From positions 1 to 45,564 of the forward strand of contig JAFGSQ010000008.1 of the NCBI GenBank assembly GCA_016934535.1: a stretch of 45,564 nt of DNA. Direction: 5' to 3'. Below the pieces are notes generated by a model. The model searched no databases, was not told where the DNA came from, and saw only the letters and a program-made list of their open reading frames with translations. Source of the stretch: a candidate division WOR-3 bacterium. GTDB lineage: Bacteria > SDB-A. The position numbers and the translations under genes were made by a program. Positions 16,987-41,517 of the stretch are shown here, piece after piece (within the stretch, counting starts at the first letter, position 1; each line of letters opens with the position of its first letter).

Positions 16987-17475
16987 TTAAAGTAATATTT
17001 TTTCAAATTTAATTTCGTGAAGCAATGGTATTCCGTCATTTCCTGTCAGCGGTATTTCAGGTTTAAGTTTTCTTGATTCATTAAGTGCATTTTTGTAAAA
17101 AGCAGACATGATAAAGCCGATTTTTTGATAAAATCTCATCGCTTTCGTGTTGTCGTTCGTCGTTATAAGCCACACCATACTGCATTTTTCTTTCGCTGCC
17201 TTGTCAATGATTTTCTCAACGAGAGCTTTTCCTATCCCGCGTCCTTTATCCATGCTGTCAAGAGAAACGATCTCGCATACTTTTCCAACTATTTCGAATG
17301 TCGCTATTCCTTTTATGACGCCTTTTTCGATCGCGACGAAACCTTGGAGGTTTTCAGAGTCGTGAATTTTTCCACATGATACTAAAATCGAAGAGCCCCA
17401 GTTGTCTGAAATGTATTTGACTACAAATTTTCTGTATTTCTCTGATATTTCTATTATTTCAAAAGAGTCTTTCAT
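16987..17475 (-). CDS. GNAT family N-acetyltransferase
   Basis: Motifs KGRGIGKALV and WLITTNDNTKAMRFYQKIGF. ATGA overlap with the upstream gene. Confidence 0.9.
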   Translation of the reverse strand: MKDSFEIIEISEKYRKFVVKYISDNWGSSILVSCGKIHDSENLQGFVAIEKGVIKGIATFEIVGKVCEIVSLDSMDKGRGIGKALVEKIIDKAAKEKCSMVWLITTNDNTKAMRFYQKIGFIMSAFYKNALNESRKLKPEIPLTGNDGIPLLHEIKFEKILL

Positions 17476-20400
17476 TTCTTCTCCTCGCTTGCAAATCCGT
17501 TCAATTGATAACCGTCTTGATTTCTCAATTCGTCCAGTCTTCTTTTATATATAAATTTTGGTGATTTTTCAGAGATTTTAACGTAAATCATTATTGTTTC
17601 GTCTCTGTATTTTTCTGCTTTCTCCCTGTGTGAATGGATTTTTACGCTCATTTTCCACAGATTGAACAGAAGTTCCGCTTTCAACTCGTCTGATTCCGTC
17701 TTCGGCAGTAATTTTTCCAAAAGCTCTATGCATTCTTTCTTTTGTTTAATATCTGTGCTCAACTCAAACACGATCCTCGGGCGCTTGATATTCGCGCGTA
17801 TTATCTCTATGAAATTCCCCAGTCGCTTCTCGTAACTCAAAATCTCGTCAGTGAGACGGAGGCTTTCCTTCAACTTACCTGAATCAAAGAGATATCCCGC
17901 TTTTATTTCAAGTGTGTCAACTAAAGTGATGAAGTCCTTGAACCTTCTCGAAACCTCCAAAGATTTTTCTATGTATTCAAAGGCTTTGTCTTCGTCTTTG
18001 AAATGATAATGATTTATCTGACTCATCAAATTGTAGGCGTGGGCAAACTCTGACGGAGCGTTGATTTCTTTAAGAACAATTAGTCCCTTTTCGCAAAAAC
18101 ACATGCTCTTTTCATATTCACCCAAATCGTAATAGTGTGAACTCAGGTTATTGAATATGGAATGAAGGACGTTTCTGTTTCCGGTTTCTTCAGCCAATTT
18201 CAGAGATTTTATGTAATATTTTTCCGCTCTATTGAAATCTCCGCTTACGTCGTATAAAACCGCAAGATGTTCGTAGGAATAAAGAAGCATGTTTTTATTA
18301 TTTTCTCTTCTTGCAATCCTCAGGCTTTTTCTGTTCATTTCAATGGCTTTTTCAAACTTCATCTGCATATAGTAGATGCCGCCGAGATTAGTCAGTATCT
18401 TTTGAATCTCTTTTTCAAAATTATTTTTTTCGGCGATTTTCAAAGCTTTTTTGAAAAATTTCTCCGAAGTTTTTACTTTACCGAAATTCAACATGTGGCA
18501 TCCGAGTGAATGAAGACTTTCAGCCTGTATTTTATCATTTGAATATTTTTTGCCAATCCTGTATGCTTCAATGAATTTTTCCAAGGGAGGCATTTTTTCA
18601 CCGTCTTTCATTTCGCCCCAACCTGACTTGTCTATAATCTGCGTTTTCAGGAGTATGTCTCCCGCGTATTTTAGGACTTTCATGGCTTCACCTAGGACAT
18701 TTTTTTGTTCTTTCCTTTTCGCCATTAAATTCAGAACCCGCTCTGTTTTCAAAGACAACTCGAGAAATTTTTCCGCCTTGTCTTTCGTTTTCAGTGTGTA
18801 TCTGTTTTTCATGTAAGCGAGAATTTTACCGTAATACTCAACGCAATCGGCGTTTTCAAATCTTTCAGCGGCTCTCATCGCCGCTTTTTTATAAAATTCA
18901 CCGGCCTTTTCAGGTTTTTCAGCTTTTTCATAGTGATAAGCTATATCTTTGAAATAAGGCGCAATGTCTGTTCCAAAAAAATCCTGCAATCTGTCGGCAA
19001 TTTTCCCGTGAGTTCTTCTCAAGACAGTTTTCGATTGCATTTCATACAGGACTTTATAAGTGACAAGATCGGAAAACCTGAAAGAATGCGCATCAGAAAC
19101 TTCTATAATCCTGCTGTTGATTGATTCCTTGAGCACTTTTTCTGAAAATTCGACTCCCAATAAAAACTTGAGGGTTCCCGGTGAAAACTCGGTTCCGAAA
19201 ATCGCTGCTTTTTCGAGGGCGGTTTTTACATCCTGTCTCAAGGCGTCAATTTTTGAAGTCGTAAGAGAATAAAGATCCGAAGGCATCCTGTCGTCAAGAA
19301 ACGGATCGTAAAGAGGATTTTTTGAAATTTTTTCCTTAACGTAATCACAATAGTTTATAACAAACAGAGGTTTCCCAATGCTTTTATTCAATATGTATTT
19401 CCTTACATTATCGACAGCGTTTATTTCAGCCATTTTGCTGTCCATGAGCTCAGACGCTTTATTTTCATCGAGAGCTTCCAATTTCAAATGTAAAACCGCC
19501 TTTTCCTCGCAAGCCGTTTTTACATTTTCCAGACAGATGATTTTTTCGTCCGTAGAGGAAAGAATAATCGCGCATTTTTTTTCCGCCGAATCCAAAACGA
19601 TCAACCTGACAAGTTCTTCCGAAGCAGGATCCAGGTGTTCGATATCTTCGAAAACGAGAGCAGATTTACTTTCGTCCAGTATTTTTCCAAAAAACACTCT
19701 CACTGACCACACAATATTTTGAAACCGGGATTTCGGATCGAGATTTTCGTAGAGAGAATCCTTTATTTCGATTCCAAGAATTGAAGCGATGAAAGATTCC
19801 GTTCTGCTGAATTGTTCTTTTTCATTCTTTCCCTCTATTGAAGAGATTAATTTTCGGAATATTCTGAAAAATTTATCGCGGTTTTGTCCGGTCATTCCTT
19901 CTTCGTAATCGAAAACGTTCCTAAAAAACCTCTCAAACACCCCTAGACTTTTTTTGCGCGTTGAAACCGAGTTGACTAAATACCATTTGAAGTCGCCTCT
20001 CTTTCGGTACAATTCTTCAATTATTCTGGTTTTTCCTATACCGGTTTCTCCAGTCAGAAATATTATCTGACACGACTTTTCGGTCAATACAGCGTCCAAC
20101 TTTCTTTGTATTTCCAATATCTCGGTCTCTCTGCCGATAATTTTCCCGAATTCGGATACTTCTGAAATGCTTCTGATTTTTTTTTCCAGACAGAATACCT
20201 CTATCGGTTCATTAAATCCCTTCAGAACAGTTTTCCCTTTTGACGTGAATATATGAGACGATCTTTTTGCTTCGCGTATTTTTTCGTCTGTTATTATTTC
20301 TCCTGTTTTTGCTTTACTCATCAATCTTGCAGCCATATTGACATTTTCACCAATTGCGGTGTATTCACACCTGTTTCTGCTGCCTATGAAACCGGAGTAA

Positions 20401-21314
20401 GCCATGCCTGAAGAGACGCCGGCTTTGAATGTAAAACCTTCTATTCCCCTGAAATCTACGCACATATCGAGCGCTCTGTCGAGATCGTTGCCTTCGCTTT
20501 GAGGGGCGCCGAAAACAACAAGCATGAATCCACCTTTGTCTCCGAAACTTATTCTGTTTAAGTATCCTTTGTGGCTTTCGACAGAAGCGACAACGGACGG
20601 AAGAACATTGTCAAAGTCGTTTTCATCGAACGATATAAAGCAATTTATCGTCTCTCTGAATTCTCCCGGCGTTTTAAGCGAAATTACTTTTTTCGGATAA
20701 AACATCGAGTCTATGTTTTTCTCTCCCGTGAAAATCCGGACACCTGCTCGGGAAGTCTTTATTGAGTTCCGTGTTTTATTGGAAATCGCTTTAAATTTCC
20801 TGTCTTCCAGAGACTCGTTTTTTCCGCAGGATCCGGAAAGTTCTGCCGAGTCATAAAAAGGCTTTCCCTTTATGTAATAGGCTCCGATCCCGTCTCTTTT
20901 AAGAATTCGGTATTCTATGCCGCCGTATGATATCGCGACTTTTACGGAAAGTTCGAATTTGCCGAATCTGTTTTTCTTTTCTCCTCTCTCGGAAAAGTAT
21001 CTCTTTATTTCTTCGGCTGCTTTAACAGTTCTCTTACAAAAACCGGCGCTTTCCGGAAACACAGCATAAAAGGCGTCTCCACCGAAAGTCGAAACGAAAC
21101 CTCCGTTTATATAAACTGAGTCTATGCAACGCCCGAAAAGACCGTTTATGGAAATTGAAAGCACTTCCGCACCTTCGGGACCTTTTTCCATCAGGGTTTT
21201 TGTCATTTTCGTGAAACCTGAAATGTCAGCGAAAAGCACTGCGCCTTTCAGATAGCCTTTAAATTTTTTTTTGATTAAATTCTGTGAAATTAATTCAGGA
21301 ACCAGACATCTCAT
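17472..21314 (-). CDS. Tandem class III adenylyl cyclase domains + AAA/STAND NTPase + TPR repeats (soluble-AC-like)
   Basis: Domain 1 has LFADISGFT and FGGDA. Domain 2 has GDKG, FGAP and EYTAIGENVNMAARLM. Then IIGRETE, Walker A GETGIGKT, Walker B-like LVFEDIEH, and C-terminal TPRs. Confidence 0.9.
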   Translation of the reverse strand: MRCLVPELISQNLIKKKFKGYLKGAVLFADISGFTKMTKTLMEKGPEGAEVLSISINGLFGRCIDSVYINGGFVSTFGGDAFYAVFPESAGFCKRTVKAAEEIKRYFSERGEKKNRFGKFELSVKVAISYGGIEYRILKRDGIGAYYIKGKPFYDSAELSGSCGKNESLEDRKFKAISNKTRNSIKTSRAGVRIFTGEKNIDSMFYPKKVISLKTPGEFRETINCFISFDENDFDNVLPSVVASVESHKGYLNRISFGDKGGFMLVVFGAPQSEGNDLDRALDMCVDFRGIEGFTFKAGVSSGMAYSGFIGSRNRCEYTAIGENVNMAARLMSKAKTGEIITDEKIREAKRSSHIFTSKGKTVLKGFNEPIEVFCLEKKIRSISEVSEFGKIIGRETEILEIQRKLDAVLTEKSCQIIFLTGETGIGKTRIIEELYRKRGDFKWYLVNSVSTRKKSLGVFERFFRNVFDYEEGMTGQNRDKFFRIFRKLISSIEGKNEKEQFSRTESFIASILGIEIKDSLYENLDPKSRFQNIVWSVRVFFGKILDESKSALVFEDIEHLDPASEELVRLIVLDSAEKKCAIILSSTDEKIICLENVKTACEEKAVLHLKLEALDENKASELMDSKMAEINAVDNVRKYILNKSIGKPLFVINYCDYVKEKISKNPLYDPFLDDRMPSDLYSLTTSKIDALRQDVKTALEKAAIFGTEFSPGTLKFLLGVEFSEKVLKESINSRIIEVSDAHSFRFSDLVTYKVLYEMQSKTVLRRTHGKIADRLQDFFGTDIAPYFKDIAYHYEKAEKPEKAGEFYKKAAMRAAERFENADCVEYYGKILAYMKNRYTLKTKDKAEKFLELSLKTERVLNLMAKRKEQKNVLGEAMKVLKYAGDILLKTQIIDKSGWGEMKDGEKMPPLEKFIEAYRIGKKYSNDKIQAESLHSLGCHMLNFGKVKTSEKFFKKALKIAEKNNFEKEIQKILTNLGGIYYMQMKFEKAIEMNRKSLRIARRENNKNMLLYSYEHLAVLYDVSGDFNRAEKYYIKSLKLAEETGNRNVLHSIFNNLSSHYYDLGEYEKSMCFCEKGLIVLKEINAPSEFAHAYNLMSQINHYHFKDEDKAFEYIEKSLEVSRRFKDFITLVDTLEIKAGYLFDSGKLKESLRLTDEILSYEKRLGNFIEIIRANIKRPRIVFELSTDIKQKKECIELLEKLLPKTESDELKAELLFNLWKMSVKIHSHREKAEKYRDETIMIYVKISEKSPKFIYKRRLDELRNQDGYQLNGFASEEKK

Positions 21315-31526: not shown

Positions 31527-32492
31527 ATGGACATATTCGACACATTAGGACCGGTTGCTATTGCAAGCAGGACGAAGAGGTTTCTCGACACACTCGTAAA
31601 AGACGGTGAAACTGTATATAAAAATCAGAACATTCCGTTCAAAACCAAATGGTTCCCTGTATTTTTTGCTCTTTACAAAAGCCAGGAGCCGCTTTCCATA
31701 ACAGATTTGTCGAACATCCTTCACATGACTCACCCGAACGTAATAAAAATTGTCAGCTCAATGTCGAGAAAAGACATCGTCGTCTCCTTGAAAGACGAAT
31801 ACGACGCCAGAAAACATTTGATAAAACTTTCCGAAAAAGGCACCCAGTTGATCCCCTTGCTTGAACCTGTATGGAAAGCATTCGAAAGAGCTGTTTACGG
31901 TCTTTTCAACGAAGTTGATTGTAATTTCATAGAAGTTCTTTCAAAAATGGAGAAATCGCTGTACCGAAAAGGGATGGCGGAAAGGGTTATTTCAAACATA
32001 AAAGAATCTCAGTATGAGGCCATAGCAATAATTGAATACACGCCTCAGTTAAAAAAATATTTCAAAAATCTCAATTATGAATGGCTAGAAAAATTTTTTT
32101 CAGTCGAAAATTATGACGAAGAAGTATTAAACAATCCTGAAAAATATATTTTTTCAAAAAACGGATTCATACTTTTTGCACTCATAAACGGAGAGATAGT
32201 CGGTACTTGTGCGGTTTCGGAGATGGATCCCGGTGAATATGAACTGTCAAAACTGGCAGTTACAGAAAGCAAGCAGAACAGAGGAGCCGGGAAAAAACTC
32301 GTTACGGAAGCCATCAAGCGAGCCAAAGATAAAAACGGCAGAAAGATTTTCCTTTTGACGGATGAAAAACTTACAAAAGCATTCAATCTCTACAGAAGCA
32401 TGGGTTTCAAAACCGAAACAGTAAACAAATTCCCCGAAAAATTTCTTTCAAGATCAAAAACTTCCATTACCATGAGCTTGAGAATCGAATAG
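31527..32492 (+). CDS. Bifunctional MarR-type HTH regulator / GNAT acetyltransferase
   Basis: Winged HTH (SITDLS..THPNV..DARK..LSEKG) followed by a GNAT domain (NYEWLEKFF, ELSKLAV, QNRGAGKKL, LYRSMGF). Confidence 0.88.
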   Translation: MDIFDTLGPVAIASRTKRFLDTLVKDGETVYKNQNIPFKTKWFPVFFALYKSQEPLSITDLSNILHMTHPNVIKIVSSMSRKDIVVSLKDEYDARKHLIKLSEKGTQLIPLLEPVWKAFERAVYGLFNEVDCNFIEVLSKMEKSLYRKGMAERVISNIKESQYEAIAIIEYTPQLKKYFKNLNYEWLEKFFSVENYDEEVLNNPEKYIFSKNGFILFALINGEIVGTCAVSEMDPGEYELSKLAVTESKQNRGAGKKLVTEAIKRAKDKNGRKIFLLTDEKLTKAFNLYRSMGFKTETVNKFPEKFLSRSKTSITMSLRIE

Positions 32493-32557
32493 TATTATTT
32501 CAGCTTTGTATTTTTTCACAAGAATGATAAAATACCTTTTACCCTTTTATCACTAAA

Positions 32558-33211
32558 ATGAAAAAAGTTTTAATAATATTGTCTTTATTTTATTTGTCCG
32601 TTGGCTTCCTTAACGCTGAAGCCCTCGTTGGCATAAAGACCGGCCTCAACGTTTCGAGTTTTTACGGAGGACAGATGAACGATGACGGCACGAGAAGAGG
32701 CTTCTACGTCGGTTCGTTTGTCAACTTGCCGGTGACAAATTTTCTGTCTGTTCAGCCTGAATTTTATTTTACGTCAAAGGGCAAAGAAAACACCTACATG
32801 ATAGGATTCACAAAATACAAAAAATCAATCTGCATTTACTACCTCGAATGCCCCGTTCTATTTAAATTAAAAGTTCTCGACAGAGGGACTCTCAGATACA
32901 ATTTATTAGCGGGTCCATACTACTCTTTCTTCGCGGGCGGAATCAGCAATTTTCCGGTCGGATCGGACCCAGTCACGGAAGACATAGAATATCTTTTAAA
33001 CGGCAAAGTCAGGGAATCCGATTTCGGTTTCACAATAGGAGCTCAATTGGACATAGTGGTTCTCGATTTCAAAAGTTGGATCGTCTCTATCGACATCAGG
33101 CACACTTTGGGACTAAATCCCGTCCACACCCGCGAAGATGAACTGCTTTTTCTCATAGACCAGAAAAACAAGACGACTTCCATGATGGTCGGTCTTGCCT
33201 ACGTCATCTGA
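32558..33211 (+). CDS. Porin-family outer-membrane beta-barrel protein (PorT-like)
   Basis: Signal peptide and motifs GIKTGLNVS, VQPEFYFTSKG, YLECPVL, GPY and DFG. C-terminal GLAYVI. Confidence 0.8.
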   Translation: MKKVLIILSLFYLSVGFLNAEALVGIKTGLNVSSFYGGQMNDDGTRRGFYVGSFVNLPVTNFLSVQPEFYFTSKGKENTYMIGFTKYKKSICIYYLECPVLFKLKVLDRGTLRYNLLAGPYYSFFAGGISNFPVGSDPVTEDIEYLLNGKVRESDFGFTIGAQLDIVVLDFKSWIVSIDIRHTLGLNPVHTREDELLFLIDQKNKTTSMMVGLAYVI

Positions 33212-34290
33212 TTTTTTATCTTAATATATTTTTTGTAATTCTCAAGCGATCTGCCGAAGTCGTGTTTCTTTTCATAAACGAGGGAAAGAGTTCTGTAAAG
33301 ATTCATAATGAGAGGTTTTTCATCTATTTTTTCAGCAATGCTGAGTGATTCAGTCAGAAATCTGACTGCAGAGTCGTAATCATTCTCCTGTATTTTTATT
33401 GCGCCGTATTCATGTTTGATGTTCGCTATCGCCTGCAGGTCTCCCAATTCCTCATTTATTGCCAGCGACAATTCAAAACACTCAAGAGCTTTGCCTTTTT
33501 CACCTATTTCGATGAATGTGTTTGCGAGATTAAACAGGATATTTGCTTCGAATTCCCTGTGTCTGATCTCTTTTGCCAATGCGAGCGAATTTTTGAAATA
33601 CGTCATGGCTTCCTTGCTTTTATTAAGCTTTTTGTAAATTATTCCTATATTGCAAAGCTGACCTGCAATCCCTGAAAGGTTATTGTTTTTTTTGTATAAT
33701 TTTAAAGCTTTCTCATGAAAATCAAGGCTCAAATAGACGTCTCCTTTTTTTTCGTACAGATCACCCATACTCGACAGTGTGTTCGCTATGCTGTTTTCAG
33801 AATAGTTTTCTATACTCTCTTTGATTTTTAAAGATTCTTCAAAAACGCCTAAAGCTTCAGAATAAGCGCCTCTGGCTGAAAAAACAAGACCCATGTTGTT
33901 GAGGCATTGAGCTTTTAATTCAAAACAGTTCAATTCTTCAGACAAATTTAACGATTCGTGAAGGATTGAAAGAGCCGCTTCATACTCGCACATGTAGTAT
34001 TTTACAAGTCCGAGGTCTTTTAACAGTTCTGCCTTGGTTTTTTTGTCTTCTCCGCTGATTCCAATCGCCTCAGAAAAAACATCTTCGGATCTTTTATATT
34101 CTCCCAATCTCGCGAGCGATCTGGCTATGATTTTTTTAGCCTTAAAAAACAGATCAATTTCACTTGTCTGCGCGATCAATGAAAGAGCTCTTGTCGCGCT
34201 TTCAAGGGCTTTTTTCGGGTCTTTATCTTTGGAAAGTGAAGCTTCATTCAGCAGATTTTCAGCTTCGCACGTCGGATTTGTTTTACCCAT
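33199..34290 (-). CDS. TPR-repeat protein; cyclase-less paralog of the TPR array of 35203..37101
   Basis: Tandem repeats of about 40 aa, collinear with the N-terminal part of the 632-aa protein. Likely ATG at 34290, 7 nt after the upstream stop. Confidence 0.85.
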   Translation of the reverse strand: MGKTNPTCEAENLLNEASLSKDKDPKKALESATRALSLIAQTSEIDLFFKAKKIIARSLARLGEYKRSEDVFSEAIGISGEDKKTKAELLKDLGLVKYYMCEYEAALSILHESLNLSEELNCFELKAQCLNNMGLVFSARGAYSEALGVFEESLKIKESIENYSENSIANTLSSMGDLYEKKGDVYLSLDFHEKALKLYKKNNNLSGIAGQLCNIGIIYKKLNKSKEAMTYFKNSLALAKEIRHREFEANILFNLANTFIEIGEKGKALECFELSLAINEELGDLQAIANIKHEYGAIKIQENDYDSAVRFLTESLSIAEKIDEKPLIMNLYRTLSLVYEKKHDFGRSLENYKKYIKIKNQMT

Positions 34291-34297
34291 GTTTTTA

Positions 34298-35206
34298 TCA
34301 TATCCAAGCGCTGTAGTCAAAAGCGTACATTTCCGTTTTACCTACGCCCTTCAAATTAACAACAGACCTTTCAGCATTTTTAATTTTATCCTTCACCAAA
34401 TCGTAAGTATCTGCAGAAACGTAAATTTTTCCCGCTTCCGACCGGTCGTATATTCTCGACGCGGTATTTATAGTGTCTCCAAAAATGTCAAAAAGAAATT
34501 TTTTTTCTCCCACGACACCTCCTATGACGCATCCGGAATGCACAGATACTTTCAAAGACCAATCATCTGAATTGTTTTTTTTAATCTCCTTTACAAGACG
34601 TGCGTTTTCAACGGTGGCAGCAATAATGTTTTCTGCATGATTTTCAAAGGCCACGGGAAGTCCGCAAACCGCGAGATACTTTTCTTCGAATGTTTTTATT
34701 TTTTCACAATTCATTTTTTCGAATGTCTCATCAAAGAAAGTGTAAATTTTACTCAACTCTTCGAGCGTTTCTAGGTTTATTTCCATTCTCAACAATTTTT
34801 TAATACATGGAAACCCGATTATACATACGGTGACGTTGTCGTACAATCTCGCCGAGACCTTTCCGTTTTCCTTCATTTCTCGGGCGACAGACGGAGGGAG
34901 AATGCTCAGAAGGAGTGAATCGGATTTCAACTTTTCCTCTTCAAGGCTGTTTTTTGCTCTTTCGAGTCTTTCATTTTCTGTTTTCATGATTTCCGCTTCA
35001 TTGCGGATAATTTCAAGTTCATGCTCAATCCCTTCAACCTCTTGCTTCAACTTCAGTTTTCTTTCTTCCGACTCCATTTGTGCCGCGAAATAAACTTCTT
35101 TCAATCTCAGATACTCATTAAAATGCCCGTACGCCTTTTCAAAATCTCCGTTTGAAAAGAATTTCTCGCTCAACAGCTTTTCTTTTTCTACTTCTTCTCT
35201 CTTCAT
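34298..35206 (-). CDS. Class III nucleotidyl cyclase, C2-like half-enzyme (coiled coil + CTE + cyclase; lacks both metal Asp)
   Basis: Motifs SDSLLLSILPPSVA, VTVCIIGFP, EKIKTFEEKY, HSGCVIGGVVG and FDIFGDTINTASR. ATG 35206 overlaps the upstream TGA (ATGA). Confidence 0.88.
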   Translation of the reverse strand: MKREEVEKEKLLSEKFFSNGDFEKAYGHFNEYLRLKEVYFAAQMESEERKLKLKQEVEGIEHELEIIRNEAEIMKTENERLERAKNSLEEEKLKSDSLLLSILPPSVAREMKENGKVSARLYDNVTVCIIGFPCIKKLLRMEINLETLEELSKIYTFFDETFEKMNCEKIKTFEEKYLAVCGLPVAFENHAENIIAATVENARLVKEIKKNNSDDWSLKVSVHSGCVIGGVVGEKKFLFDIFGDTINTASRIYDRSEAGKIYVSADTYDLVKDKIKNAERSVVNLKGVGKTEMYAFDYSAWI

Positions 35207-37101
35207 CTTTTCACCGATTTGTACACTTTTATCTGACCGCAATCCTCCGATTCAAAAATACCCATCCTTTCAATTTTAGAATTGAAAGAAAGCATTTCAA
35301 ATGTTCTCGACGATATGCCCAAAATCATCGGAGGCATTATCGATTGAATATATTTAGCTATGTCCACGGCTTCCCCCGTTACCTCGTACAAAAACTTTTT
35401 TTTACCCATGACACCGCACGTAACGTTTCCAGTGTGTATACCCGCCCTTATCATCCATTTGAAATTTCTTTTTTTGTTTCTTTCACACAAATAATCAAGG
35501 CACTCGTTTGATGCTGAAACCATGCCTTCAGGTGTTTTTTTATCAAACAGACCGGAAACAGCAAGATAGGCGTCGCCTATTGTCATTATTCTTTCGCACT
35601 CCCATTTTTCAAAAATTTCATCAAAAGACGAAAAAATTTCATTCAGCTCTCCTATCAAACTTTCCGGGTTTATGCCGCGCGCATTCGACGTAAAATCAGC
35701 TATGTCGGAATAAAAAACGGTGACGTTCCTGAAGTTTTCAAAACCTGTAGGCTTTCCCTGCTTCAGGCGTTCTCTAACTTTTTCCGGGAAAATCGCCTTC
35801 AGAACCGAATCCGTCTTTATCTTTTCCTCTGTAAGTTCGGCAAGGGTTTCATTAAGTTCATCGTTTTTCAATCTAAAGAACTCTGCCCTGGTTTGAATGT
35901 TTATTTCGTCTCTTTTCTTTTTTTCAATTTCAAATCGTGTCTCCAGCTCAGAAATCTTCCCGGACAGATCTTCGCTGAAAATCAGATCGTTCAAATTGTC
36001 TGCTTTGTGTAAATATTCGAGCGCTGTTATAAAATCATTTTGCCGTGCGAATAGATACGCATGTTTGAAGAGAGATTCCGCTTCGAGGTTTAAAGCGCCT
36101 ATTTCACGAGAAATTGAACAGGATTTCTCCAGACATTCACGGGCTCTGCCGTAATCTTTTATGAATGTATAGACGTCTGCTATATTGTTCAAATTGTTGG
36201 CTGTTGATTTCTTGTCATATAAAATCTCGTTTATGCGCAGTGATCCGTTAAAATACTCAAGAGCTTTGGTGTGATTTTTCTTTCTGAGATAAACCAATCC
36301 GATATTGTTCAGTATATTAGCGCAGAACTCTTTGTTTTTTACATCTTCGGCGAATTTCAGCGCTTTCATGTAGTATTTAAGAGCCAAGTCTTCCTGATCA
36401 TTGTCCTTCAGTATATTTGCTACGTTTGAAATTGCGCCGGCCAAACCTTTTTTATTTCTCGTTTTAAAATACATTGACAAACTTTTTTTGTAGTATTCGA
36501 GCGCTTTTCCATTGTCGTAAATGCTTTCATAAACCGATCCGATGTTTCCGAGAGTGTCTGCCATTTTGTCAAGCGGCACCCCTTCATTCTCTTCAATTTC
36601 AAGACATTCAAAATATGATTCGAGAGCTTTATCCTTTTCCTGTAGTGCTTCCAATACGAGACCTCTGTTGCTAAGAGCCGGCGCCAACACTTCGTTTGCG
36701 CCTATCTCCCTCGATATTTCTATGGCTTTTTCGAGATTAAACATGGCCCCTTTAAAATTACCCAGATAATAGTGATTAAGCCCTATGCTGTTTAAAGACG
36801 TACAAACGAGTTTATTATCCTGAATTTTTTCCTGAATAGACAAAGCTTTTTCAAAAAGTGTCAAAGATTCCTTTAAATGACCGCCTATTACCTTGATTTT
36901 CCCTTTTTTATTGTACGCCCTCGATAAATTTAACTGATCATTTGTTTTTTCAGCCAACTTGATGGCTTCGTCGGCATATTCTGTCGAAATCTCACTATTT
37001 CGATTCAAATACATTTCGGCAAGTTTAAATAGTAGGAGAATTTTGTCTTTTTCGCTTTTTGTTTTTTTGAGTTTTTTTTTGAGTTCTTCTGTTTCGTCCA
37101 T
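35203..37101 (-). CDS. TPR-coiled coil-class III nucleotidyl cyclase, C1-like half-enzyme (both metal Asp kept; K/D/N/R lost)
   Basis: TPR array and coiled coil, then VTVFYSDIADFT, ERIMTIGDAYL, GIHTGNVTCGVMG and YEVTGEAVDIAKY. Confidence 0.9.
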   Translation of the reverse strand: MDETEELKKKLKKTKSEKDKILLLFKLAEMYLNRNSEISTEYADEAIKLAEKTNDQLNLSRAYNKKGKIKVIGGHLKESLTLFEKALSIQEKIQDNKLVCTSLNSIGLNHYYLGNFKGAMFNLEKAIEISREIGANEVLAPALSNRGLVLEALQEKDKALESYFECLEIEENEGVPLDKMADTLGNIGSVYESIYDNGKALEYYKKSLSMYFKTRNKKGLAGAISNVANILKDNDQEDLALKYYMKALKFAEDVKNKEFCANILNNIGLVYLRKKNHTKALEYFNGSLRINEILYDKKSTANNLNNIADVYTFIKDYGRARECLEKSCSISREIGALNLEAESLFKHAYLFARQNDFITALEYLHKADNLNDLIFSEDLSGKISELETRFEIEKKKRDEINIQTRAEFFRLKNDELNETLAELTEEKIKTDSVLKAIFPEKVRERLKQGKPTGFENFRNVTVFYSDIADFTSNARGINPESLIGELNEIFSSFDEIFEKWECERIMTIGDAYLAVSGLFDKKTPEGMVSASNECLDYLCERNKKRNFKWMIRAGIHTGNVTCGVMGKKKFLYEVTGEAVDIAKYIQSIMPPMILGISSRTFEMLSFNSKIERMGIFESEDCGQIKVYKSVKR

Positions 37102-37177
37102 TATCTAATAATATCACGATAAAACAATAAAAACGTAGACTCTTTATGAGATGGTATCCTACAAATTTTTTATAAAT

Positions 37178-37208
37178 AAAAAAGGCGGCTCATTTGGCCG
37201 CCTTTTTT
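37178..37208. terminator. Bidirectional intrinsic terminator
   Basis: AAAAAAGGCGGC-tcatttg-GCCGCCTTTTTT, 20 nt past the VIT-vWA stop codon. Confidence 0.88.
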
Positions 37209-37228
37209 CCGGTTCTGATAAAAGGTTA

Positions 37229-39343
37229 TCAGCGCGTCAATTCGTACCAGGTGTCGCCCACCTTGAATATCACATCGCCCAAAGCCATGAAGTCCCCTGC
37301 TTCGGGATTGTCAGCGAGCAATTTAAAGAATTCAGCGCTTCCGAAAGTTATTTTTTCAGTTGTCTGGTTTTCGTATCCGTTTTGTTTCCAGACGCTTCCT
37401 TCTTTGACAAAGCTTGTGCCGTTTATGTAGTTTATGACAGGATTGTGCGAAACCTCCTGGACGTTTCCTCTGGCCATTCTGTCAATTGTGCTCGAAACAT
37501 CTACCGCGAACCCGCCGGAGGCTTCTTTTTCGCCCATTGCCGGAGCGAGAGCGCCGTCCATCATCAGCATCTCGGACGACATCGTCCTTATGTCGTCAAA
37601 TTCAGTCCCGGCAAGCATTTCCTCGTTTTCCGTGACAAGGTATGAAGTGTACGGAGTGACAATTCCGAACTCGAGGGCGAGGGCTTTTATGTCGTTGACG
37701 AGTTCGGGATTTTCACCGTTCAGTCTTATGTCCCTGAGAAGAGTGCCGACCTGTCTCATTGCCCAGTATCTTCCTATGAAATCCAATTCCCTGTCGTATT
37801 CAGTGAAATCGGCCGTGAAGGTGAATTCCTGTTTGGAACCGCCTCTGAGACCGGTCAGATAGACCCTGGAACTGCCGCCGTTTCTGTACCTGCCTGTTAT
37901 TACCAGCTGTTGGCCTTCAAAAATATCAGGCAAAGACCTCGGCACAACATCATACACGTTGGCTGTCCCGAAGTTGACTGCAATGTCTGTCAGAACGGGA
38001 TGTGAAATCTTGTCGTAAAAAGAGCTAATCACCACTTCGAGAGTATCACCGTCCTTTACATATTCGACGAGCCCTCTTCCCGCTTCCGACATCGCATCGA
38101 GCAGTATGGCGTTTATCTCGTCTTTTCCAATACCAAATACGAACATTTTTGCTTCGTCGAAATCTTCCACCATGTCGACGATTTTACCTGGATCCATTTC
38201 ACCTACGGTCGGATAACCGTCTGTGAGAAAGACTATGAAAGAAGGTCTCGTTGCCGAATAATTCTGATCAAACGCGAGGTCGAGGGCGTCTCCTATGTTT
38301 GTGCCCCCTCTGGCGACTATGTCTTCTATAAAATCTTCCGCGTCGCTGATGTTGACTCTCGAAGCCCTCGACAGGTCGTCAAACAGAGTTTCCGTGCTCG
38401 AAGAAAAAGTTACAATGTTGAATCTGTCTTCGGGATTGAGGTTGTCTACGCAGTAATTCAGGGCATCTATTACCATCTCCATTCTTTCGCCCCTCATCGA
38501 GCCGGATCGGTCAACTACGAAGACTATGTCTTTGGGAGTAGATTCGACTTCACCGCTTCCGACGGAGCCCAAAAGAATGAAATATCCGTCGTCGCCCCTT
38601 TTAGGCTTGTATGTGATGACTGAAAGATCCACTTCATCTTCGTTGAGTGAGTAATACAGTATAAAATCTTTGTCGGGTTTTACGTTTCTTTCTTCCCAAG
38701 TTATCTCGGCGTGCCTTGAATCAATGTATCTCACTTCAATTACGTGAGATGGCGAGTATACGTTTTTGATGGGTTTGTCGGTTTTAAGGTCGATCCTGAT
38801 GACGGCGCTCTCGAGATCTTTCGACGAAAACCTTTCTGTGGAAAGAGGATATATAAATCTGTAAAGATTTTTATCTTTTCTGACGAGTTGTTGATAATCG
38901 AGTTCAACCTGTCTGTTTCCTTTAGCCGGAAACGGGAAAATCCTGGCCTCAAACATGTCCTGACCTGCGTATCTTAAAATGGCGGGATCAATCATCCTCG
39001 AAACTATTTCCTGATAAATTTCCAGCGCTTCATCTGCGTCTTTGATCTCACCGTGCACTTTTTCGCCCTCTATCCACAGTACAAAATCCGATATGGCGGC
39101 CTCTTCAGGTATGGGGAAAATGTATCTTCCTTCCACCTGGTGATTGTTCGGATTGTAAAATTCCTGGTCTATGTGGACCTGGGCGAACTGATGGGTCAAT
39201 TCAATGTCTACGTGGTGGTATTTGACTTCCACCTGTACAGGATTCGGCAAAAAAGGTGTCGGAGGGACGATTATAAATCCGTCAGCCGACACGCCCGACG
39301 CAAAAGCGGCGAGCACGATCGAAATCAGCGTGAATTTTTTCAT
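37229..39343 (-). CDS. Secreted VIT + vWA domain protein (inter-alpha-trypsin inhibitor heavy chain-like)
   Basis: Signal peptide, VIT domain (QEFYNP..EGRYIFPIP), MIDAS DRSGS, GGTNI, FLTDGYPT and GIVTPYTSYLV. Confidence 0.9.
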   Translation of the reverse strand: MKKFTLISIVLAAFASGVSADGFIIVPPTPFLPNPVQVEVKYHHVDIELTHQFAQVHIDQEFYNPNNHQVEGRYIFPIPEEAAISDFVLWIEGEKVHGEIKDADEALEIYQEIVSRMIDPAILRYAGQDMFEARIFPFPAKGNRQVELDYQQLVRKDKNLYRFIYPLSTERFSSKDLESAVIRIDLKTDKPIKNVYSPSHVIEVRYIDSRHAEITWEERNVKPDKDFILYYSLNEDEVDLSVITYKPKRGDDGYFILLGSVGSGEVESTPKDIVFVVDRSGSMRGERMEMVIDALNYCVDNLNPEDRFNIVTFSSSTETLFDDLSRASRVNISDAEDFIEDIVARGGTNIGDALDLAFDQNYSATRPSFIVFLTDGYPTVGEMDPGKIVDMVEDFDEAKMFVFGIGKDEINAILLDAMSEAGRGLVEYVKDGDTLEVVISSFYDKISHPVLTDIAVNFGTANVYDVVPRSLPDIFEGQQLVITGRYRNGGSSRVYLTGLRGGSKQEFTFTADFTEYDRELDFIGRYWAMRQVGTLLRDIRLNGENPELVNDIKALALEFGIVTPYTSYLVTENEEMLAGTEFDDIRTMSSEMLMMDGALAPAMGEKEASGGFAVDVSSTIDRMARGNVQEVSHNPVINYINGTSFVKEGSVWKQNGYENQTTEKITFGSAEFFKLLADNPEAGDFMALGDVIFKVGDTWYELTR

Positions 39344-39352
39344 CTTTCCCCC

Positions 39353-40477
39353 TCAATAGGTCACACCGATTATTTCGGCTTGCTCTTTAAGGGTTTCTAC
39401 GACGAAAATGTCGAAAGCATCTCTTTCTTCTCCGGTGTTATCCCTGATGTACTGGTCCCTCATTCTTGTAAGTTCCGCCATTTTGCCTGTGATGACTTCT
39501 CTTTCCGATCTCAGGCTGTCTATGTATGCCGTTCTCTCGTCATCAGTCATGTCTTTGAAAATTTCGGGCATTTCGTCGTCTTCCACGTCTTTCAGTTCTA
39601 TTTTACCTTCAATGATCTCGCTTACCAGGTCTCTCGAAACAAATCCGTATCCTGCGGCTGATTTAGCATAAGCGTACGTAGCTCTGTCTGCGGCCGTCGA
39701 AGGAGCTTCGGCGGCTAATTCACCGCTCGCTCCCATGGTCGCATCCGCCATAATCACTTCTTCTTCGCTTCCGTAAAGAAGTACTGTTCCGTAGAGTTCT
39801 CTGCTCAGAGAAGCGATTTCTTCGTCGTACGGAGTCGCTACTACCTGTGAAGCTTCGTATCCTATTGAAGTGTAAGTCCCTTCGGCGAGATGGGCAATTT
39901 CCATCCAAACTTCCTGCGTGCTGTTGTCCGTGCCGCATCTGACAGTGTTTATTATTATTTCTTTCTTCAGCGCGTCCCTGCACACGGTTATATAGTCGTT
40001 CTGATCGTTGTAATCCATGTGAGGAGGAGCGTCGCCTACGAGAAAGACGAGTTTTAAGACGTTTTCGGAATCAGTCCATGACATGCTGTCGACGGCCCAG
40101 GTGAGAGCCTGGTTGACGTCTTCCTGAAAATCTCCGCCTCCGTCGGCCGTGACTGATGTCAAATCGACGTATATTTGGTCTATGTCGTCAGTTATGTCGT
40201 ATTTTTTTACGACGAATACATCCCCTCTGTCTCTGTATATGACCAGTCCAATTCTGACATCGGGAACTGGATCTCCGGTGAGGATTTCGTTGGCAATGGA
40301 CCATATTTTCATTTTCGCGCCTTCGATCAACCCCGACATGCTTCCCGTGGCGTCGAGGACGAAAACGACTTCGATTGTAGGGTTATCCACTCTGACGGTT
40401 CTGTGTCCGGCTAATTCGGGATTTTTACACGACATTACCGCGAGTAACAGGATTGTTGCGGCGATCAGTCTTTTCAC
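39353..40477 (-). CDS. vWA-domain lipoprotein
   Basis: GTG start at 40477 after AAAGGAGG. Lipobox VMSC, MIDAS-like DATGSM, YRDRGD, GGGDFQEDV and GDAPPH. Confidence 0.87.
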   Translation of the reverse strand: MKRLIAATILLLAVMSCKNPELAGHRTVRVDNPTIEVVFVLDATGSMSGLIEGAKMKIWSIANEILTGDPVPDVRIGLVIYRDRGDVFVVKKYDITDDIDQIYVDLTSVTADGGGDFQEDVNQALTWAVDSMSWTDSENVLKLVFLVGDAPPHMDYNDQNDYITVCRDALKKEIIINTVRCGTDNSTQEVWMEIAHLAEGTYTSIGYEASQVVATPYDEEIASLSRELYGTVLLYGSEEEVIMADATMGASGELAAEAPSTAADRATYAYAKSAAGYGFVSRDLVSEIIEGKIELKDVEDDEMPEIFKDMTDDERTAYIDSLRSEREVITGKMAELTRMRDQYIRDNTGEERDAFDIFVVETLKEQAEIIGVTY

Positions 40478-40746
40478 TTTTCCTCCTTTTTCATTCTTTT
40501 TTTCTTTCGTCTCATGTTCCATTTTTGCATAGTACTACTTTGAAAGTAACATTATTATTTCAAAAATTTTGGATATTCCATTAACTCGTTTTGTTTGAAC
40601 TGCGATTGCCGGTATAAATTAAATCTTAAATAAGTAGAACTCTTCCCGTTATTGTATTAAAATGAAATCCAGGAAGAGTTGCCCGAACATATCAAGCACC
40701 GGAGAGAACTATTTTAAAGTTCGAAATCGCTCTCGAGCCGAATCTT

Positions 40747-41517
40747 TTGTATGAAGAGTTTTTAGCCGTCGACAGAGCCTGTTTTCCAAACGAACCTTTG
40801 ACAAACCGGGAAACTTTCAAGGAATGTCTCAAAGACAAATTTTGGACCGTGAGATTCAGCGGAAAGCTGGTCGCCTATTCTCACGTCAGTTTCAAAGACA
40901 CCGCCCACATACACAGGATCGCCGTGCTCGATCAGTTCAGGCGTAAAGGAATCGCGGGCAGGCTTATTGAGATAGCCGTCGACATGTGCAAAAAGTATTC
41001 ATTAGATACAGTCACCCTCGCAGTTCAGAAAGACAACGAAGACGCGATAAAACTTTACAAGAGTTATGACTTCGAAGAAATTGGCGACCTGTACCAGTTC
41101 ATAGCTCCTATTCACCGCAGATCAGCCGGATCGGCTGGTAAAATCAGATGTCAAACGAGAGCTCTTTCAATAGGAGACCTCAACGAAACGCTCAGGTCTA
41201 TTCTGCCTTCTGAATGGGATTACATTGTAGAACAGCACGCTCCTCCCCACAAATTCGCTCTGCTGTTCGTCGAAGGAGAATCTACTGTCAAAGGAATCTG
41301 CAGACTCGTCGCCGACATGCCTGGTTGCAAGCCCTTCATATTGCTCGAACCTCATCTTCATCTTCCAGCTGTCGTAGACTCGATAGGCGCATTTTTAAAA
41401 CCCGCTCAGGACCAGCTTCTGCTCACTTTTCCTGACGAAGGTTTGGCAAGAGCCTGCCAGAAAGCCGGCTTCAAGCTTCAGTACGAACTCGTGAGAATGG
41501 AAAAAGATATACAATAA
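40747..41517 (+). CDS. GNAT (RimI-like) acetyltransferase with C-terminal extension; start uncertain
   Basis: Motifs IHRIAV, FRRKGIAGRL and LAVQKDNEDAIKLYKSYDF. The frame stays open upstream to 40666. Confidence 0.8.
   Translation: MYEEFLAVDRACFPNEPLTNRETFKECLKDKFWTVRFSGKLVAYSHVSFKDTAHIHRIAVLDQFRRKGIAGRLIEIAVDMCKKYSLDTVTLAVQKDNEDAIKLYKSYDFEEIGDLYQFIAPIHRRSAGSAGKIRCQTRALSIGDLNETLRSILPSEWDYIVEQHAPPHKFALLFVEGESTVKGICRLVADMPGCKPFILLEPHLHLPAVVDSIGAFLKPAQDQLLLTFPDEGLARACQKAGFKLQYELVRMEKDIQ

Follow-up and report, generated by a model that had tools for sequence, protein, structure and literature searches.

Overlapping genes of a candidate division WOR-3 bacterium encode complementary half-cyclases of a putative heterodimeric class III adenylyl cyclase

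In class III nucleotidyl cyclases, the metal-binding aspartates of an active site come from one protomer and its Lys, Asp, Asn and Arg residues from the other, as the available excerpts of two reports describe (PMC4174876; PMC2576301). In the excerpt of the first of these, bacterial class III enzymes carry all of these residues in one domain and assemble into homodimers with two equal sites, and the heterodimer with one site is presented as a feature of the animal enzymes (PMC4174876). We analysed a 45,564-nucleotide stretch of DNA from a candidate division WOR-3 bacterium (GTDB lineage Bacteria; SDB-A), which corresponds to positions 1 to 45,564 of the forward strand of contig JAFGSQ010000008.1 (GenBank assembly GCA_016934535.1) and is hereafter called the window. 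Two adjacent genes of the window, cycA and cycB, each encode one cyclase domain. Judged from their sequences, CycA and CycB probably combine as two different subunits into a soluble adenylyl cyclase of class III (IIIa type) that has a single composite site.

Several described systems resemble this pair in part. In mammalian adenylyl cyclases (ACs; PDB 1azs and 1cjk; AC9, AC8 and AC5), the C1 domain holds the two aspartates and the C2 domain the Lys, Asp, Asn and Arg residues (PMC4174876, in the portion available), one active site is accompanied by one pseudo-site, and each domain follows a helical coiled coil. However, these enzymes consist of one polypeptide with 12 transmembrane (TM) helices, whereas CycA and CycB are two predicted soluble proteins encoded by overlapping genes and associated with putative TPR sensors; in addition, our trees place the CycA/CycB duplication inside a bacterial lineage, separate from the animal one. 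Soluble guanylyl cyclase (sGC) alpha/beta is an obligate heterodimer encoded by two genes, as proposed here for CycA/CycB; it has a single active site, and its catalytic domains are preceded by a coiled coil. Its HNOBA C-terminal helix matches CycB and its chains are found among the PDB matches of the pair, but sGC is eukaryotic, GTP-specific and equipped with H-NOX and PAS sensors. The fungal RGC1/2-NeoR proteins, the closest parallel with two genes in the literature consulted, likewise come from different genes, require co-expression for activity and bring two sensor modules onto one catalytic dimer, but according to the available part of the report they are eukaryotic, use rhodopsin sensors and produce cGMP (PMC7655827).

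Among bacterial enzymes, Rv1625c/Cya resembles the pair in its fold, in its IIIa-type sequence and in having a helical domain ahead of the catalytic one, and yields strong matches (4p2f, 5o5k and 7yz9). Heterodimers were reportedly engineered from complementing point mutants of Rv1625c by Guo et al. in 2001. Unlike CycA and CycB, Rv1625c/Cya and other bacterial class III enzymes have the six residues in each chain and form homodimers with two sites, as stated in the accessible parts of two reports (PMC4174876; PMC9433096). The soluble adenylyl cyclase (sAC)-like proteins with cyclase, STAND and TPR domains, many of which are encoded in the window's own genome, show a C1/C2-like asymmetry and possess a TPR module; yet their two cyclase domains are fused within ~1300 amino acids (aa), are accompanied by a STAND ATPase and are of the K/T type (IIIb-like), whereas CycA and CycB are encoded by two genes, have no ATPase and are of the K/D type.

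A full-text literature search, in which subscription journals are poorly covered, retrieved no description of a natural two-gene class III heterodimer from bacteria, and the text of a survey of actinobacterial cyclases does not mention the word 'heterodimer' (PMC2447327). GcyB/GcyC of Rhodospirillum centenum were considered as a bacterial precedent and set aside: in the portions of the literature available, they are described as putative or non-catalytic guanylyl cyclase subunits and not as a heterodimer. CycA/CycB would apparently represent a new bacterial two-gene version of the eukaryotic cyclase design, and one that recurs in bacteria. A conserved, selected and coupled pair of this kind suggests that the asymmetric design evolves in bacteria too, apparently more than once. 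As a small soluble system of two proteins, CycA/CycB could serve as a model for studying what favours the combination of an active site with a pseudo-site, how a single catalytic dimer integrates two different sensor domains and how duplicated enzymes become mutually dependent. The pair also bears on annotation, as each gene taken alone would be counted as a cyclase, yet neither product is likely to work alone.

Catalytic residues and layout of the cycA-cycB pair

On the minus strand of the window, cycA (35203..37101) encodes a 632-aa protein with a TPR region, a coiled coil and a cyclase homology domain, as delineated by its open reading frame (ORF), Pfam and PDB alignments, and cycB (34298..35206) encodes a 302-aa protein, counted from the ATG at 35206, with one TPR-like helix pair, a coiled coil and a cyclase domain. 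The Pfam profile PF00211 scored 101 bits on CycA (residues 455-619; 35245..35739; E 7.7e-29) and 115 bits on CycB (residues 119-295 of 302; 34322..34852; E 3.7e-33), above the cut-off of 21.9, which identifies both as class III nucleotidyl cyclase domains. As each protein contains a single PF00211 stretch and a stop codon separates the genes, the pair is not a tandem polypeptide of the sAC-like kind.

Residue positions were placed by HMMER alignment to the mammalian AC8, AC9 and AC5 chains. CycA keeps both metal-binding aspartates, D466 (FYSDIAD; codon 35704-35706) and D510 (TIGDAYL; codon 35572-35574), which align with the aspartates of the C1 motifs FADI and GDCY. The Lys, Asp, Asn and Arg of C2 are matched in CycA by M506 (35584-35586), E573 (35383-35385), D580 (35362-35364) and Y584 (35350-35352). 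The situation is inverted in CycB, whose residues are numbered here from an upstream TTG at 35242 (314-aa numbering, from which 12 is subtracted to obtain the 302-aa numbering): the C1 aspartates are matched by G143 (codon 34814-34816) and E187 (34682-34684), and K183 (34694-34696), D252 (34487-34489), N259 (34466-34468) and R263 (34454-34456) are retained. Written as six letters in the order first metal, second metal, K, D, N and R, the signatures are DDMEDY for CycA and GEKDNR for CycB. Neither chain therefore holds all six catalytic residues, as each chain of a two-site homodimer does; instead, the residues are split between two homologous domains in the manner of C1 and C2. The two metal positions are separated by 44 residues in both proteins. 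All twelve residues and this spacing had been named in the original prediction, made from the sequence alone, and each of them falls at its canonical position in the HMMER alignments.

The asymmetry extends to overall similarity. CycA scored 65.9 bits with C1 and 42.7 bits with C2 of AC9; CycB scored 68.4 bits with C2 and 55.2 bits with C1 of AC8, its scores for the two halves being about equal for AC5 and AC9. The best PDB matches of CycA and CycB are AC9, AC8, AC5, the atrial natriuretic peptide (ANP) receptor, sGC and Cya, and those of CycA reach into the helical domains of Cya, sGC and the ANP receptor. The pair is of class IIIa type by three features: its nearest solved relatives are transmembrane ACs, guanylyl cyclases and Cya, CycB has the Lys/Asp pair, and a helix precedes the cyclase domain. 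The coiled coil and transducer helix span approximately residues 385-450 of CycA (35752..35949, including KTDSVLKAIFPEKV), as delimited by the complex model described below and by PDB matches, and approximately residues 40-115 of the 302-aa CycB (34862..35089, including KSDSLLLSILPPSVA), where the C-terminal helix of Pfam HNOBA matches residues 73-110 and the complex model agrees. The conserved transducer helix before IIIa cyclase domains is known as the cyclase transducer element (CTE), for which a motif of 19 residues is published. A helix before each cyclase domain had been anticipated, and the HNOBA match in CycB and the parallel coiled coil of the complex model bear this out. The proteins also lack TM-like segments, as predicted: the Kyte-Doolittle maxima over 19 residues are 1.12 for CycA and 1.33 for CycB.

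The two genes overlap by the 4 nucleotides ATGA at 35203..35206, in which the TGA stop of cycA and the ATG start of cycB are interlocked; at this junction, AGATGAAG, the AAA AGA TGA of cycA is re-read as ATG AAG. The sequence confirms the overlap that had been predicted but not the length of 314 aa given for CycB: as the cycB ATG overlaps the cycA stop, CycB likely starts at ATG 35206 and has 302 aa. By its arrangement, the overlap is a translational coupling of cycA and cycB. The same 4-nucleotide ATGA coupling is found in four of the five pairs of the phylum introduced below (window, G001, G002 and G003), and two pairs from Treponema have it as well. The locus had been described as consisting of two genes; the pair itself stands, but a conserved third gene, here named T (33199..34290, minus strand), had been missed. 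It begins 10 nucleotides past the cycB stop, so that cycA, cycB and T form a tightly packed trio within 33199-37101 on the minus strand.

Conservation, selection and origin of the pair

The phylum is represented by six genomes in the GTDB set, the window's genome (G000) having 2.23 Mb in 76 contigs. The syntenic triple cycA-cycB-T is present with intact frames in five of the six, namely those of the window, G001, G002, G003 and G005. The CycA signatures are DDMEDY (window), DDMDDF (G001 and G003), DDMDDK (G002) and DDMDDY (G005), and those of CycB are GEKDNR (window), ENKDNR (G001, G002 and G003) and EDKDNR (G005). The loss is complementary and lies on the same side in all five orthologous pairs: every CycA has Met at the Lys position, and the Asn position is occupied by Asp or Glu in every CycA-type subunit of the phylum and of the Treponemataceae. 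E573 of the window's CycA stands where its orthologues retain D. Both proteins evolve rapidly, the window copies being 40-51% identical to their orthologues from the same genus. Both cyclase domains are nevertheless under purifying selection: the ratios of nonsynonymous to synonymous substitution rates (dN/dS, Nei-Gojobori) between G002 and G003 are 0.28 for the whole of cycA and 0.27 for its cyclase domain, and 0.17 and 0.14, respectively, for cycB, compared with 0.28 for the whole of T. A comparison of orthologues had been proposed with the original prediction to distinguish complementary from random loss, and it gave complementary loss in five pairs out of five, with dN/dS values of 0.14-0.28 between G002 and G003.

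We then looked at relatives outside the phylum. When a CycB alignment was used to scan one genome per species, it returned 76 loci which, together with a further set of loci and the window, provided 94 cyclase-domain ORFs. Seventy-three of these have the canonical signature DDKDNR, and all of them are unpaired; two are fragments, one is the domain of genome G004 discussed below, and the remaining 18 stand in adjacent pairs. These 18 reduce to seven distinct pairs once two duplicated loci are dropped, and all seven are complementary, including two from Treponema in which the first gene has DDKDDA and the second EEKDNR. Of 201 Treponemataceae genomes sampled, four have the full pair, the first gene having DDKD(D/E)(A/K) and the second (E/Q/S)(E/N)KDNR, whereas the single genes in the fetched loci are DDKDNR without exception (26 of 26). 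The Treponemataceae pairs (L088, L095, L137-L140; G041, G042, G236, G233, G122) consist of overlapping genes for proteins of ~400 and 405 aa, whose N-terminal ~190 residues have no Pfam match. The residue pattern is present in every orthologous pair and absent from nearly all unpaired relatives; it is not due to chance.

A scan of metagenomes with an alignment of CycA-type domains yielded 59 loci with 60 cyclase-domain ORFs, of which 46 have DDKDNR, nine are fragments, and the others have DDKDNL (one), DDRDNR (two) or DDENNR (two); no further CycA-type gene was found among these 59 loci, and the sample of such pairs from the phylum stays at its five genomes and the wastewater contigs described below. 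The DDENNR signature, with Glu and Asn at the substrate positions, belongs to a 367-aa cyclase represented by two records (L211 and L212, 3024-4127), which may have a different nucleotide specificity.

Phylogenetic trees were computed from 85 rows and from a thinned set of 68 rows, with 50 canonical rows and without the G004 domain and the near-identical L095 pair. The CycA and the CycB sequences group into one clade each, with support values from the Shimodaira-Hasegawa-like approximate likelihood ratio test (SH-aLRT) of 98 in the 85-row tree and 99 in the 68-row tree, and the two clades share the branching order G005,(window,(G001,(G002,G003))). The phylum CycA and CycB clades are sisters in the 68-row tree (support 84), their relation being unresolved in the 85-row tree; the 68-row tree also joins the Treponemataceae subunits as sisters (87), nested among canonical Treponema cyclases. 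Because the 68-row tree pairs the subunits within each lineage, two independent duplications, one in the phylum and one in the Treponemataceae, are favoured. A single origin of the CycB-type subunits is not formally rejected by the approximately unbiased (AU) test, in which forcing them into one clade, a group named after the tree had been seen, gave a delta log-likelihood of 27 and a p-AU of 0.063.

A proposed composite active site and its alternatives

In the enzyme that we propose, a parallel coiled coil would join the subunits, whose cyclase domains would also meet head to tail. At the active site, the C1-like CycA would provide the metal-binding D466 and D510, and the C2-like CycB the adenine-selecting K183 and D252 and the transition-state residues N259 and R263; at the dead site, G143 and E187 of CycB would face M506, E573, D580 and Y584 of CycA. 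A CycA homodimer would be devoid of Lys, Asn and Arg and a CycB homodimer of metal ligands, so that neither should be active. A TPR-cyclase gene would have been duplicated in tandem, and the two copies would then have lost complementary residues to give the pair. Acting through the coiled coil, one or more TPR modules would set the activity, and T would be a likely partner in trans. The allosteric role suggested for the pseudo-site in the original prediction is speculative. A more far-reaching version, in which the C1/C2 design evolved as two genes at least twice in bacteria, the conserved residues of the dead site, Met at the Lys and Asp or Glu at the Asn position, line a regulatory ligand pocket comparable to the forskolin site, and the two unlike TPR sensors and T make the enzyme a coincidence detector, is speculative and as a whole rather unlikely.

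A complex of CycA 400-632 and CycB 60-302 was predicted from our own alignments of 45 rows, for which the calibration of the method is only roughly valid. The pair scored 0.66 and the best of three controls 0.00; in the calibration, 58 of 80 solved complexes attained that mark, as did 2 of 110 mismatched pairs. The model runs agreed in at least 84% of contacts, with a predicted local distance difference test (pLDDT) value of at least 82 for the partner. The modelled interface comprises a parallel coiled coil between CycA 402-437 and CycB 64-103 as well as the segments with the catalytic residues. The model supports a heterodimer, with the reservation given below. Taken together, conservation, selection, trees, this model and the Treponemataceae pairs support what had originally been predicted: a soluble heterodimer with one composite site of the ATP type and one degenerate site.

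Several observations weigh against this reading. The metal positions of CycB vary, with E and D in G005 and E at the second position in the window. Glu is able to bind metals, and in some species a CycB homodimer with residual activity is conceivable. The only such domain seen in G004 (88% complete, 440 contigs), in a 305-aa protein, is an unexplained exception to the pair pattern. The signature of this domain reads DNNDKL, and it is degenerate in both halves; the domain (L047 1-951) lies at a contig start, is not syntenic, has no downstream TPR gene and sits on a very long branch of the tree. The dN/dS values come from the single genome pair G002-G003, the other comparisons being saturated at synonymous sites. 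On metagenome contig L200 (1-4016), two adjacent TPR-cyclase genes both have DDKDNR, so that adjacency alone does not imply complementarity; these genes, of 670 aa and of 632 aa truncated by the contig end, may represent the state that precedes complementary loss. The complex model may owe its pass to memory of solved class III cyclase dimers: as such dimers are common among solved structures, the pass shows likeness and not binding, and the model covers the heterodimer alone and does not rank it against homodimers. Lastly, the census of the window's genome described below used a hidden Markov model (HMM) trained on IIIa-type domains, to which distant domains aligned only in part.

Other explanations of the pair can be set against these data. 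The subunits might form a heterodimer that makes no cyclic nucleotide and serves as a nucleotide-binding or scaffolding module. The genome is indeed rich in cyclase-STAND-TPR paralogues with degenerate domains, and E573 replaces the D of the orthologues in CycA; but exactly one full set of six residues is spread over the two chains in all five pairs and in the Treponemataceae pairs, and a scaffold has no need of D, D, K, D, N and R, whereas selection for one working site predicts them. We consider such a pseudo-enzyme improbable. Less probable again is that the subunits act independently as two co-regulated enzymes, CycB being a weak homodimer with Glu metal ligands or pairing with other cyclases. 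The E at the second metal position of CycB, the E and D of G005 and the 22 PF00211 matches in the genome speak for this, but Gly occupies the first metal position of the window's CycB, every CycA orthologue is without Lys, Asn and Arg, the HMM census assigns the genome's remaining cyclase domains to other subtypes without a matching coiled coil, and CycA and CycB share their branching order and are encoded by translationally coupled genes.

An active heterodimer could also make another product, cGMP or a further cyclic nucleotide, since the Lys/Asp pair does not fully predict substrate choice in class III cyclases and CycA residues near the site depart from the canonical ones. However, the adenine-specifying Lys and Asp are present in all five CycB orthologues, and in GTP-specific enzymes these positions are normally occupied by Glu and by Cys, Ser or Gly, which makes this possibility smaller still. 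That the genes are decaying duplicates whose complementarity is accidental is very unlikely: their fast evolution (40-51% identity to same-genus orthologues) and the ~320 residues missing from the window's CycB would fit decay, but the frames are intact in five genomes, dN/dS is 0.14-0.28, the loss is always on the same side and the pattern appears again in a separate lineage. The most probable reading remains a soluble adenylyl cyclase made of CycA and CycB, in which cAMP would be the product.

The short CycB, gene T and the genomic surroundings

The CycA TPR region extends over approximately residues 25-370 (35992..37029, minus strand, boundaries approximate), with matches to Pfam TPR_12 (five stretches), TPR_1, TPR_2, TPR_8, TPR_10 and TPR_MalT, and is presumed to be a sensor or protein-interaction module. 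The CycB orthologues are 625-639 aa long and have an N-terminal TPR domain as well, whereas the window's CycB aligns to their last ~300 residues and is shorter by ~320 residues. By this comparison the short CycB is a derived state in which the TPR domain was lost. Contigs X2 (36.7 kb) and X3 from a wastewater study with no relation to the probable source sample cover 33900-36267 with ~94% identity (147 differences); they have no gap over the cycA-cycB junction and encode the same short form. As the short form occurs in independent contigs, the CycB deletion is not an assembly artefact of the window's bin; X2 and X3 count as one independent study, and a further run, X6, covers only 34623-34881. 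X2 is devoid of 36268-36348, an in-frame stretch of 81 bases (27 codons) in the CycA TPR region at which the X3 contigs break; this resembles strain-level variation in repeat content.

Gene T encodes a TPR-only protein (Pfam TPR) of 363 aa, counted from ATG 34290, with no TM-like segment (Kyte-Doolittle maximum 0.70). It is a full-length paralogue of the CycA/CycB TPR domains, with ~30% identity to the CycA N-terminus by BLASTP. Its orthologues are 36-48% identical (BLASTP) and lie downstream of cycB in all five pair-bearing genomes.

In the window's genome, PF00211 has 22 matches, mostly in frames of ~1300 aa and sometimes two per frame; these ~1300-aa proteins combine the cyclase domains with a STAND ATPase and TPR repeats. 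The HMM trained on IIIa-type domains classed the remaining cyclase domains of the genome as K/T-type or as sAC-like tandem domains, and no canonical K/D-type partner of comparable score was seen in this census. The genome encodes five proteins that bind cyclic nucleotide monophosphates. The sAC-like expansion is large for a genome of 2.23 Mb. One of its members lies in the window itself (17472-21314, minus strand) and encodes 1280 aa, in which residues 291-377 form a partial cyclase domain that is accompanied by TPR repeats and a STAND ATPase of the AAA_16/NB-ARC kind. Elsewhere in the genome (G000:C23:19794-23163; L010, L021), a 221-aa cyclase frame with the signature DDKDNK and a low score is situated ~2.7 kb from a 1142-aa cyclase frame on the same strand, an arrangement that may be another split cyclase.

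A scan of 32400-41000 for promoters and terminators was uninformative, with 18 promoter-like sequences for 13.6 expected and 5 terminator-like sequences for 8.2 expected. Upstream of cycA, and treated here only as context for the cyclase pair, are two minus-strand genes: one for a 704-aa VIT+VWA protein (37229-39343), separated from cycA by 127 bases, and one for a 389-aa VWA protein with a lipoprotein-like N-terminus (39353-40522). Their synteny is kept in three genomes of the same genus and not in G005.

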